A stretch of DNA of 56,184 bases from an uncultured bacterium (GCA_964515295.1 CAZETW010000006.1:1-56184), one strand, 5' to 3'. Positions 42,782-48,487 are shown, counted from the first letter of the stretch. The notes: generated from the letters alone by a model not told the origin. Translations and numbers: made by a program.

Positions 42782-42982
42782 TTATAATTTTGTTACATTA
42801 GAAGCCTGAGGGCCTTTATCACCCTGAGTTACTTCAAATTCTACAGCGTCACCTTCATTCAGACTTTTGTAACCGTCAGTATTAATGGCGCTGTAATGAA
42901 CAAATACATCCTCTCCCTCTTCACGTTCGATAAATCCATAACCTTTGTTGTTGTTAAACCACTTAACTGTACCTTTTTCCAT
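42782..42982 (-). CDS. Cold-shock protein
   Basis: GTVKWFN, KGYGFI (RNP1), DVFVHYSAI (RNP2), KGPQA. Confidence 0.97.
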
Positions 42983-43472
42983 CTTACTTCCTTCTTACTT
43001 AATTAAAATTATACTTCAGTACATAATTTTTACGGTCTTTGCAAATTTCACTAAAAATGTAATAACCCTTTGATAAAATCTTAAAGGCAGGATAAAACTT
43101 TTTTTGTAAATAAAATTCTTTAAACACGTCTAAACCATGTACTATTATTAGGAACATAAATATACAACAATAATATTCTAAAATCAAGTATAATTTACAT
43201 TTTTCTATATTAATTTAAAAAAATAATAGTTATATATAAAAATAATCATTATTCAGATTAATATATTATTTTTATGTATAAAATCATGAATAAATCATCA
43301 GAAATTATATAAAATTTTGTTTTGTAATAGAATTAATTGATATTTTTTGTTATTTTGTTATATTGTGTTTAATTGGATTTATAAATTTTTTGAAAAAAAA
43401 TCTATGATTATTATTTTAAATACTCATATTTTTTCTTATTATTTTAATATAATATAAATGGAGGATTTTGTT

Positions 43473-44003
43473 ATGAAATCAAAAAAAATATCTCGAAGAG
43501 ATTTTGTTAAAAATGCTGCAGTTGGTACAGCAGCGTTAGGTGCTGGTTCTGTATTAGGATCAACTGATAAGGAGCAGAGAGAATTTAAAGGAGAAATGAA
43601 ATCTGAAAAAGTAGTAGAACTGCTGAATCAGGATATTACCGGTGAAATTGATGCAATCATGACCTATATGCGTAACGCTTTTGTTTCAGAACTGTGTGAA
43701 GCTGCTCATGAATTAGAAGAAGTCGGTATAGATGAGATGCGGCATGTTGACTGGCTTGCTGATCTTGTGACTGAATTTGGCGGGATTCCAACCATGGAAC
43801 ATCATGAACTTTCTTTTGGTGGAAATACACATGAAGATTTCCTCAGACGTTCTATAGAACTCGAAAAAAAGGCCATCAAACAGTATAATGAACATATTAA
43901 GATGATTGATCATAAGGAAGTAGTGGAAGTATTAAAAGTTATTGCATGGGAAGAGAATAAGCATTTAAAGGCATTTAATGAAATACTGGAAAAATTAAGT
44001 TAA
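43473..44003 (+). CDS. Tat-signal ferritin-like (di-metal carboxylate) protein
   Basis: SRRDFVK twin-arginine leader; GEIDAI, DEMRH, LEKKAI, EENKH ligand pattern; GGAGG RBS. Confidence 0.85.
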   Translation: MKSKKISRRDFVKNAAVGTAALGAGSVLGSTDKEQREFKGEMKSEKVVELLNQDITGEIDAIMTYMRNAFVSELCEAAHELEEVGIDEMRHVDWLADLVTEFGGIPTMEHHELSFGGNTHEDFLRRSIELEKKAIKQYNEHIKMIDHKEVVEVLKVIAWEENKHLKAFNEILEKLS

Positions 44004-44024
44004 TAATAACGGAGGCAAATCATT

Positions 44025-44789
44025 ATGCGACATTATAAGATATGGATTTGTTTAGTAATTTTGATTTTATTTGCTAACAATTTAATGGGAGCCGGTTTTA
44101 AGATTTACGGGTATAAAACTCTGGAAAAGGGAGAGTTTGAAATTGTATATTTCAACAATTATTTTGCAAAAAGTGATCTTTTCCAGGGTTACTTTGGGAA
44201 AATGGTTGACAGAGAAGGTCTTATGTTTCATTCTCTGGAACTGGAATATGGTTTAACAGATCGGTGGACTATTGCTGCGTATCTTGATTTTGAACAACCA
44301 GATGGTGAAGATTTTAAATATACACGGTTTCGGGGCGTTTTTTTCAGATATCGATTTTTTCGAAGAAATAGGTGTTTTATGGATCCGGCACTCTATATTG
44401 AATATTACTTACCCAGGAAAGATTATAAAAATGAACAAGAGATTGAAATAAAATTTATATTGGAAAAACAAATTGGTAAAACCAGTATAAAGCTTAATCC
44501 TAGTATTGAGAAAGTAGTAAAAGGACCTGAAGTTGATGAAGGATTGAAATTTAATTATGCTGCAGGTCTGTATTATCAGTTCCATGAAAAGATAAGAGGT
44601 GGGTTGGAATTTTTCGGTAAAATGGGTGAGATAAGTGAAATGAATTCTTCAGATAAGCGTCATTGGATATTTCCTGCTTTGAAAATTAAACTACCGTATC
44701 ATATCGGATGGGAGATTGGCGGCGGTTTTGGCTTAACAGATAACAGTGATGATTTTATAGTGAAAAATATATTATCAATAGAGTTTTGA
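44025..44789 (+). CDS. Putative outer-membrane beta-barrel protein
   Basis: Sec signal peptide, alternating aromatic/polar strands (LELEYGLTDRWTIAAYL), C-terminal Phe. Confidence 0.7.
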   Translation: MRHYKIWICLVILILFANNLMGAGFKIYGYKTLEKGEFEIVYFNNYFAKSDLFQGYFGKMVDREGLMFHSLELEYGLTDRWTIAAYLDFEQPDGEDFKYTRFRGVFFRYRFFRRNRCFMDPALYIEYYLPRKDYKNEQEIEIKFILEKQIGKTSIKLNPSIEKVVKGPEVDEGLKFNYAAGLYYQFHEKIRGGLEFFGKMGEISEMNSSDKRHWIFPALKIKLPYHIGWEIGGGFGLTDNSDDFIVKNILSIEF

Positions 44790-46657: not shown

Positions 46658-48487
46658 ATGGAAAGAAAAATTTCCGCTTTTGATATTTTCTGTATTGCAT
46701 CAGGTGTAATGATTAGCTCGGGAATTTTTATACTGCCGGGAATTGCATTTGGAAAAGTAGGCCCTGCAGTATTTCTTTCTTATGGTGTGGCCGGAATAGC
46801 TGCATTACTGGGAGTGCTGAGTATTATTGAACTCAGTACAGCCATGCCTAAGGCAGGTGGTGATTATTTTTTCATAACCAGAAGTCTTGGTCCATTTTTA
46901 GGACTTATTGTTGGTTTTTTCAGCTGGTTTTCCTTATCCCTAAAGACTGCTTTTGCTATTTATGGTATTTCGGAAATCCTATACTCAATAACCGGTTACA
47001 GTCAGATTATCTTTGCAATACTTGTAGCTCTGTTTTTTATTGTTCTTAATATAAAAGCTGTTGATTTGGCTGTAAAATTTGAGGCTATTATTGTTGTTTT
47101 ATTAATAATTATTATACTTACTTATATTCTTACTGGTTTGACAAATATAGATATTGAAAAATTTACCAATTTTGCACCCAGGGGAATAAATTCAATCTTT
47201 TTAACCGCTGGTTTTGTTTTTGTATCCTTTGGAGGTTTACTCAAAGTCGCAAGTTTAAGTGGGGAAGTGAAAAATCCTAAAAGATCGATCCCCATAGGGG
47301 TTATTTCCTCCATCCTGATTGTAACAATACTGTATGCAATGCTACTGATAGTTTTGGTAGGTACGTCGGATGCAAATCAGTTAACTCTATCTCTGACTCC
47401 TGTTGCAGACTCAGCGGAAAATTTTCTTGGTAGTGTTGGTTTTTTCCTTATCTCTATTGCAGCAATGCTGGCCTTTGTGTCTACTGCTAATGCCGGGATT
47501 TTATCATCATCACGATATCCTGTTGCTTTGAGCGAAGACCATCTGCTACCAAAAGCATTATGCAGAACACATAAGCGATATAAGACACCTGTACTGGCAA
47601 TTGTAATTACCGGATTACTTATTATCGGATCTCTTTTTTTAAAACTTGAGGCATTGGTGAAAGTTGCTTCTTCAACGGTTCTCTTTTCCTATATTCTCAC
47701 CAATATAGCTGTTATTGTACTGCATGAAAGCAAGATTCAAAATTACAGGCCTACATTTAAAGTACCTTTCTATCCTTTTATTCAAATTTTTTCAATAATT
47801 CTCTTTTTTATTCTCCTGATTGATGTAGGAATTGCGGCATTTGAAATAGTAGTTATAATAATCATATTAAGTCTGCTTATCTATATATTTTTTGGCAGGA
47901 AAAAATATGATAAGGAATATGCTTTACTTTATTTGATTGAAAGAATAATCGATAAAAAGTTATCTTCAGATAGTCTGGAAGGTGAATTAAAAGATATACT
48001 GCAAAAAAGAGACAATATTATTACTGACAGATTTCATTATTTAGTTGAAGAGAGTATTTTTTTGGATCTGGATGAAAGAATGACCAAAAACCAACTGTTT
48101 GAAAAGATAGCAAAGTGCTGCTGCAATGATTTAGATGTAACTCCGTCTGAATTATATCAAAGGCTGATAGAGCGGGAAAAAGAGTCGAGTACAGCTCTTA
48201 CTCCTTTTTTGGCAATCCCTCATATTATTATCAAAGGTAAAAATATATTTAAGATGTTTGTAATAAGAGTAAAAAAAGGAGTTGTATTCTCAGACAAGTT
48301 TGATTCGGTAAAAGCTGTTTTTGTTTTAATCGGCTCGAGTGATGAACGCCAGTTCCATCTTCAGGCGCTTTCATCCATTGCTCAGATTACTCATAATGAA
48401 TATTTTGAGAAACAGTGGATGGAAGCGAAAAGTATACGTAACCTGAAGGATGTCTGCCTACTCAGTGAAAGGAACAGACACTTATAA
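46658..48487 (+). CDS. APC family amino acid permease fused to PTS EIIA(Ntr/Fru)-like domain
   Basis: [28 protein letters not shown]; C-terminal EREKESST...LAIPH. Confidence 0.9.

Follow-up and report, generated by a model that had tools for sequence, protein, structure and literature searches.

The window analysed here, a stretch of 56,184 nucleotides, is contig C6 of a draft genome of 3.15 Mb (G000; 36% GC, 94% complete). Its plus strand carries a gene for a ferritin-like protein with a twin-arginine (Tat) type leader, followed by a gene for a predicted outer-membrane beta-barrel (Table 1). The automatic gene call for the ferritin-like protein is longer, starting at 43458 and overlapping the GGAGG; we preferred the ATG at 43473. 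The cold-shock protein gene on the left holds the same position in loci L015, L051 and L052, and an amidohydrolase gene lies 156 bp downstream of the barrel gene. No close second copy of either the ferritin-like or the barrel gene was found in G000. Promoter-like sites numbered 30 vs. 16.2 in shuffled sequences, a count that is uninformative in such an AT-rich region, and a terminator scan, likewise uninformative, found none between or after the two genes. Further along the window, at 46658-48487, is a gene for an amino-acid permease with a fused PTS EIIA-like domain.

Table 1. Features of the ferritin-barrel locus (positions counted from the first nucleotide of the window)
Feature	Position	Strand	Basis and remarks
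Cold-shock protein gene, divergent	42782..42982	-	PF00313; left boundary, outside the unit
Fur-consensus match, 15/19	43235..43253	.	Not conserved, likely chance
Shine-Dalgarno GGAGG of ferritin gene	43460..43464	+	Sequence; invariant in 5/5 aligned upstream regions
Ferritin-like gene ORF	43473-44003	+	176 aa; GGAGG 8 nt before ATG at 43473
Tat-type leader and linker, residues 1-41	43473..43595	+	TIGR01409; codon changes; low pLDDT at 15-34
Single four-helix bacterioferritin-like domain, DFLP-related clade	43596..44003	+	Begins at Met42; sequence and model
Shine-Dalgarno GGAGG of barrel gene	44011..44015	+	Within the 21-bp spacer; sequence
Barrel ORF	44025-44789	+	Start 21 bp past ferritin stop; own GGAGG
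Predicted 12-stranded outer-membrane beta-barrel	44025..44789	+	Sec-type N-terminus, C-terminal Phe, COG4313/FapF-like fold

The domain behind the leader matched PF00210 (E = 6.7e-12). Its model contains helices at residues 44-71, 76-101, 120-144 and 148-175; the protein ends with helix D and helix E is absent. The diiron ligands E58, E88-x-x-H91, E131 and E161-x-x-H164 are present in all 17 non-redundant leader-bearing proteins (Tat forms), which bears out the prediction of one four-helix domain with a full E/ExxH/E/ExxH set. Y65 and Met89, the latter at the position of the bacterioferritin heme ligand (Met52), are also found in 17/17 Tat forms. The extra histidines noticed in the MEHHE motif are there as described: H110 is invariant in the 17 Tat forms and in 30/30 leaderless relatives, and H111 occurs in 16/17 Tat forms vs. 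1/30 leaderless relatives. H111 and W159 are nearly specific to Tat forms.

By sequence, the best solved relative is 9VIW (TmDFLP), with E-values of 1.1e-21 for the single sequence and 6.5e-33 for the profile. In the fold search, the Dps-like 8W1E and the mini-bacterioferritin 9QQ4 led a close field and 9VIW was absent among the matches listed; the domain fits 9QQ4 with an rmsd of 1.8 Å over 134 columns at 27% identity. Several assignments were tried and rejected. A classical bacterioferritin is ruled out by a TIGR00754 score of 31.6 bits against a cut-off of 125.55 and by the missing helix E. A mini-bacterioferritin is ruled out by the replacement of His29 and Gly34 with A69 and L74 (none of the 17 Tat forms has His at position 69) and by the 41-residue leader. 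The score for Mn catalase (PF05067, 23.3 bits) is below the cut-off of 27. Encapsulin cargo is ruled out, as the protein has no C-terminal tail and the encapsulin family PF04454 was not found in the 94% complete G000. A DFLP proper is ruled out as well, the protein being one domain of 176 aa and not two tandem domains. A search of 7999 candidates of 320-2000 aa for fused longer forms had no hit at E 1e-10, which is weak evidence. Because of the DFLP/bacterioferritin ancestry, the metal is more likely to be iron, with heme, than Mn or Cu.

The clear SRRDFVK leader of the original prediction holds up. The motif occupies residues 7-13 (43491-43511) and is followed by 18 uncharged residues, N14-T31; across 15 genes this uncharged h-region measures 12-19 residues. 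The leader scored 28.1 bits against TIGR01409 (cut-off 16.7) and 18.4 against Pfam TAT_signal, below the 22.7 cut-off of that model. By eye, small residues can be picked out at -3/-1, and cleavage after V27-L28-G29 is possible; a uniform AxA is absent across the aligned homologues. The doubt that homologues might lack the leader did not materialize: 18 of 22 aligned homologues have it and match TIGR01409, two others (P0062, P0063) were called in truncated form, and P0226 and P0248, which cluster with them, are leader-bearing, and the last two (P0064, P0065) are members of a leaderless archaeal group outside the Tat clade. Nor did that of a start at the internal Met, since a Shine-Dalgarno sequence precedes the upstream start in 14/14 genes with enough upstream DNA (15 compared) and none stands at constant spacing before Met42 in the 15 genes. 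Met42 is retained in all leader-bearing forms and corresponds to the start position of leaderless relatives, so that a second start there is conceivable. The motif codons vary synonymously across the 15 genes and S/T-R-R-x-F is retained; between lineages, leader identity is 37-62% and domain identity 67-79%. Judged from these substitutions, the leader is kept at the amino-acid level, under selection, in a rare clade. In two Aminicenantia genomes (L017, L019), a charged residue breaks the h-region after 12 uncharged residues.

TatC was found in G000 and in 5/5 other carrier genomes tested, and TatA/B in both genomes tested (G000 and G169). Seven Omp85 matches in G000 indicate that an outer membrane is present. 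Proteins leave by the Tat pathway already folded and with their cofactors in place, up to a certain size, and from its sequence the ferritin-like protein is likely to be exported in this way. A pattern search of G000 gave 10 Tat-like leaders, one of them that of the ferritin-like gene, and a Pfam search with six of the leader proteins assigned two to the aldo/keto reductase-4Fe-4S type and one to radical SAM and left three without a family. The twin-arginine motif alone is no proof of periplasmic work, because G000 puts such leaders on aldo/keto reductase-4Fe-4S and radical SAM enzymes, which normally require cytoplasmic cofactors. The leaders of these enzymes lie on contig C22 at L159:527-1756, L159:3355-4578 and L159:5881-6915; further twin-arginine leaders on contigs C31, C86 and C150 are known from the leader sequence alone.

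When 185,579 species genomes were scanned in six frames for the pattern, 37 loci emerged, 6 of them leader-bearing, and a metagenome scan yielded 46 loci (13 leader-bearing). In a HMMER search of 1.84 billion representatives, the best 150 included one leader-bearing cluster and the rest were mostly two-domain proteins. The Tat clade is rare and uncultured: the scanned species representatives included 7 genomes that carry it. Trees were built with FastTree from 239 domains and with IQ-TREE from 86 rows chosen therefrom; TmDFLP was not a row, and two-domain homologues stood in for it. All 19 Tat-group rows form one clade (100/99), which is nested among single-domain proteins (99/93) next to the DFLP-type domains, the deep forks being soft because the IQ-TREE alignment has 135 columns. 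The nearest sisters of the Tat clade are leaderless archaeal proteins (97/81), followed by Nitrospirota and methanogen-lineage proteins. With the root placed on bacterioferritin-like rows, the sequence tree reads as a single gain of the leader. Three leaderless members with a C-terminal tail (L026, L066, L069) have an encapsulin gene (Linocin_M18) directly downstream and belong to the earliest-branching subclade of the single-domain clade. One leaderless relative (L088:7001-7422) has a stop after 86 codons, with the remainder in the following frame. G000 also holds a short EncFtn-like ferritin gene (L162:3039-3341, contig C110), though encapsulin was not found in this genome.

The second gene likewise fits its description as a predicted beta-barrel gene, and its model reaches a pLDDT of 91.4. 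Its protein sequence gave no match to Pfam, NCBIfam or PDB. PF13557 was found in 3 of its 43 homologues and, with homologue P0022 as query, in 11-16% of the members of the two nearest named Atlas clusters. The model resembles FapF (5O65; Z 21.9, rmsd 3.0, 216 aligned), the COG4313 channel 4RL8 (Z 21.2, rmsd 3.1, 218 aligned) and KdgM (Z 19.6). Identity to the COG4313/FapF channels is 9-14%, and the model from residue 24 onward aligns with 4RL8 from residue 2. Seven acidic residues (E39, E72, E74, D88, E126, E141 and E195) are invariant in 42 barrel sequences and sit on the more polar strand faces, as judged by alternation and not by coordinates. These faces carry a mean of 15.3 acidic vs. 10.4 basic residues, with conserved Glu and Tyr. 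The model predicts a narrow channel, which probably lets a metal cation across the outer membrane; acid-rich polar faces would suit such a cargo. However, an electronegative cavity is reported for Pput2725 too, for which hydrophobic cargo is favoured (PMC4493636).

Conservation of the pair is only half of what had been expected. An intact barrel gene is present in 4/7 genomes with the Tat form. It is adjacent to the Tat form in two (G000, G002), one gene away in G169 (L018), and on another contig, among Fur-family and rubrerythrin genes, in G024. In the congener G003 the barrel gene breaks off in a deletion some 40 codons from its start, next to an intact ferritin gene (L014:1218-1345, contig C25); the deletion joins at a short word, GATTGTAT, found at both ends, and may be an assembly error. 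The barrel was not found in the draft genomes G167 and G168, which carry the Tat form. Metagenomic Tat-form loci have a barrel in 3/13 cases (L051, L052, L060), several of the others being short or near-copies. Barrel ranges rest on sampled genome sets: within the window's phylum the Tat form and the barrel each occur in 4/167 genomes, three genomes having the two together and the remaining barrel being a distant one; within the class of G167 the Tat form occurs in 2/151 genomes and barrels in 8/151 (3 of them close), never in one genome; and within Nitrospirota barrels occur in 33/251 genomes and the leaderless form in 9/251, again never in one genome. Related barrels without any such ferritin were seen in 3 Aminicenantia genomes and in these 33 Nitrospirota genomes.

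In a tree of 61 barrels, a single subclade of 24 rows (SH-aLRT 99) contains all 7 barrels that come from Tat-form loci or genomes and none of the 6 from genomes that tested negative for the Tat form; the other 48 rows have no known Tat-form status. By this tree and these distributions, one barrel subclade tracks the Tat form, and the ferritin can do without the barrel. The tree pattern may partly reflect kinship or one shared transfer, because the 7 paired barrels represent only some 4 lineages. An obligatory two-gene system is ruled out by the deletion or absence of the barrel in some carriers and by the ferritin-free barrels elsewhere, and for the same reasons the proposal of a dedicated channel was too strong.

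The Fur-like site does match the Fur consensus at 15 of 19 positions, but the match is likely due to chance. Sites that agree at 15 or more of the 19 positions number 110 in G000, and among 2000 simulated versions of the 16% GC spacer 52 reached 15/19. The segment with the site is missing in the two closest relatives, L051 and L052 (98% and 93% protein identity). Regulation of the pair by Fur is thus unsupported. There are three Fur-family genes in G000, and a 16/19 palindrome just upstream of a Fur-family gene (G000:C93:8909-8927; L156) is, from its sequence, a better candidate for the real Fur operator of the host than the site in the window.

Gene neighbourhoods in distant genomes, with families assigned by scanning 69 chosen neighbours, are rich in stress genes. 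In L018 the order is catalase, ferritin, desulfoferrodoxin, ZIP, barrel, peroxiredoxin, Tat form, and then four rubrerythrin-domain genes, a flavodiiron protein and a rubredoxin; a multiheme cytochrome gene lies upstream. L060 carries SOD, an endonuclease-IV-like gene, three rubrerythrin-domain genes, NifS/NifU-like genes, TusA, DsrE and a nitroreductase, followed by the Tat form and the barrel. In G000 the ferritin-barrel pair is far from the stress clusters of contigs C58 and C78 (catalase, ZIP, rubrerythrins, rubredoxin and flavodiiron protein), the ZIP gene being on C58. Ferritin-free barrels adjoin Fur (L123, L124), ZIP (L120) or multiheme cytochromes (L119, L120), one (L118) is near SodC and cytochrome P460, and some (L126-L131) have unrelated neighbours. 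At L119:6558-8772 and L120:964-4130 a multiheme cytochrome c with a signal comes directly after the barrel, and in L120 ZIP lies upstream, an arrangement that recalls porin-cytochrome pairs. The barrel gene of L122 is apparently broken.

Ferritins and bacterioferritins are treated as cytoplasmic, and defence of the envelope against iron and peroxide is credited to other families. The explanation that we favour, tentatively and at somewhat below an even chance, is that the protein is a Tat-exported, non-cage heme/diiron ferroxidase of the periplasm with an optional metal-passing barrel. We infer its export, cofactors, oligomer size, activity and protective role and the cargo of the barrel as follows. 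The protein would fold in the cytoplasm and be loaded there with heme and iron, its subunits pairing through a heme bound by Met89. It would be exported by Tat as a small non-cage oligomer, a dimer or tetramer. Upon exposure to oxygen it would oxidise periplasmic Fe(II) with O2 or H2O2, and the envelope would suffer less Fenton damage as Fe(II) and oxidant are removed. The barrel would pass metal through the outer membrane; as a member of the same pathway or regulon, it would be an optional partner and not an obligatory subunit. No partner releasing Fe(III) was found. The original prediction of a two-gene periplasmic metal or peroxide system is partly supported: its leader and active site hold, the dedicated channel is too strong and Fur control is unsupported. 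A broader proposal, that one heme/diiron ferroxidase module serves in three compartments (the cytoplasm, the encapsulin shell and, through gain of a Tat leader, the periplasm) and in its periplasmic version works with its own acid-lined barrel subclade, appears rather doubtful.

The protein might instead act as a rubrerythrin-like periplasmic peroxide reductase, with H2O2 reduced at the diiron site by electrons that a periplasmic donor supplies through the inter-subunit heme. In L018 and L060 the Tat form has genes for rubrerythrin-domain proteins, peroxiredoxin, catalase and SOD as neighbours; a multiheme cytochrome gene is found upstream in L018, and others adjoin the barrels of L119 and L120; and the Met at the heme position is invariant. 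However, G000 (94% complete) has no ORF of at least 150 aa bearing at least two CxxCH motifs, single-heme proteins being uncounted, and no match to the cytochromes of L018, L119 and L120. The characterised relative was assayed as a ferroxidase (10.1101/2025.09.13.676036). We consider a peroxide reductase unlikely. It would be quite unlikely, in our judgement, that the leader is unused and that the barrel is a bystander to an ordinary ferroxidase which is cytoplasmic, tethered to the inner membrane or started at Met42. The persistence of Met42 in every leader-bearing form, the want of a uniform AxA site, the degenerate h-regions in L017 and L019 and the Tat-like leaders on typically cytoplasmic enzyme families in G000 would agree with such a protein, but synonymous changes leave S/T-R-R-x-F intact in leaders that are 37-62% identical between lineages, the good Shine-Dalgarno sequence is at the upstream start with none at constant spacing before Met42, and Tat genes occur in every carrier tested.

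Two further readings give the barrel a larger part. By analogy with EfeUOB and Fet3-Ftr1, which serve here as the iron-uptake comparison, the barrel would admit Fe(II), the exported protein would oxidise or hold it and an inner-membrane permease would import it. The occurrence of FTR1 in 0/5 carrier genomes (control positive in 4/14), the lack of conservation of the Fur site and the predominance of stress-defence genes among the neighbours make iron acquisition distinctly improbable, in spite of the acid-rich polar faces of the barrel, the ZIP gene directly upstream of it in L018 and L120 (that of G000 being on C58) and the Fur gene directly upstream of the distant barrels in L123 and L124. 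The exported dimers could also assemble into a 12-mer cage like that of mini-bacterioferritin and mineralise barrel-admitted iron as a periplasmic store. The mature part is indeed a bare four-helix bundle that fits 9QQ4, but the loss of the His29 and Gly34 signature and the grouping with DFLP domains, which form no shells, leave such a store a very poor chance.

The main text of the DFLP preprint describes DFLPs as proteins that bind heme, oxidise Fe(II) and form dimers and not cages, models their small single-domain sister cluster as heme-bound dimers of dimers and lists three members of that cluster as encapsulin cargo; the words Tat, periplasm and export are absent from this main text (10.1101/2025.09.13.676036). 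The protein of the window shares with TmDFLP and the single-domain relatives the EEHEEH diiron set, the heme Met, the lack of helix E and membership of the same wider clade. It differs from TmDFLP in having one domain and an N-terminal Tat leader, and from the encapsulin-linked single-domain relatives in carrying this leader instead of their C-terminal encapsulin peptide, with no encapsulin found in G000. The mini-bacterioferritin of Ca. Methanoperedens (9QQ4) is also a bare four-helix bundle with a canonical diiron site and a Met52 equivalent. The available text of its report gives His29 and Gly34 as the signature and electron transfer as the function of bacterioferritin heme (PMC13168243). 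Our protein lacks both signature residues, has the 41-residue leader and is 27% identical. Classical bacterioferritin (TIGR00754) has the same ferroxidase ligands, the Tyr25 equivalent (Y65) and the Met52 equivalent; our protein scores below the cut-off for that family, has no helix E (which forms the four-fold axis of the 24-mer) and has an export leader.

A precedent for a ferritin fold carried by Tat is DUF4439 (Rv2843), as given in the available text of 10.64898/2026.07.15.738315. That is a different family for which a cell-wall role is proposed, and the ferritin-like protein has no DUF4439 match. Archaeal double ferritins form cages, according to the accessible part of 10.64898/2026.08.25.747088, which leaves our reading unchanged. 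In its model, the barrel shares with the COG4313/PF13557 channels (Pput2725, 4RL8; SphA) and FapF (5O65) the twelve strands and a short segment before strand 1. Unlike them, it has no Pfam match and is accompanied by genes for metals and oxidative stress rather than for hydrocarbons or amyloid. In a full-text search judged by title and the start of the abstract, with most subscription papers outside its scope, no description of a Tat-exported or periplasmic bacterioferritin-type protein was found.

If true, a Tat-exported bacterioferritin-type heme/diiron enzyme would extend such chemistry to the periplasm, within the limits of a clade that is rare, uncultured and only loosely paired with its barrel. 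The lost cage would account for the passage of a ferritin-like protein through Tat. The protein is small and directly testable, and its leaderless and encapsulin-targeted sisters offer natural controls. The barrel family recurs beside Fur, ZIP, rubrerythrin and cytochrome genes and is thus, independently of the ferritin, a candidate metal porin; the acid-lined 12-stranded subclade would, if true, represent an undescribed family of outer-membrane iron channels.

Two other arrangements were seen among the loci surveyed. In Nitrospirota (L132-L155), the genes of a distant barrel clade have a YCF48-like lipoprotein gene behind them (Pfam on two loci), often with a convergent Fur gene after it (Pfam on one locus), and the barrel and propeller genes form a conserved pair. 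In G024, a rubrerythrin-like domain is fused to a SpoIIE-type phosphatase (L103:9486-10514), and an ORF with a similar start is found in G000 (C78:1114-2091). These fusions lie within iron and oxidative-stress clusters and are possible sensors of iron or peroxide.
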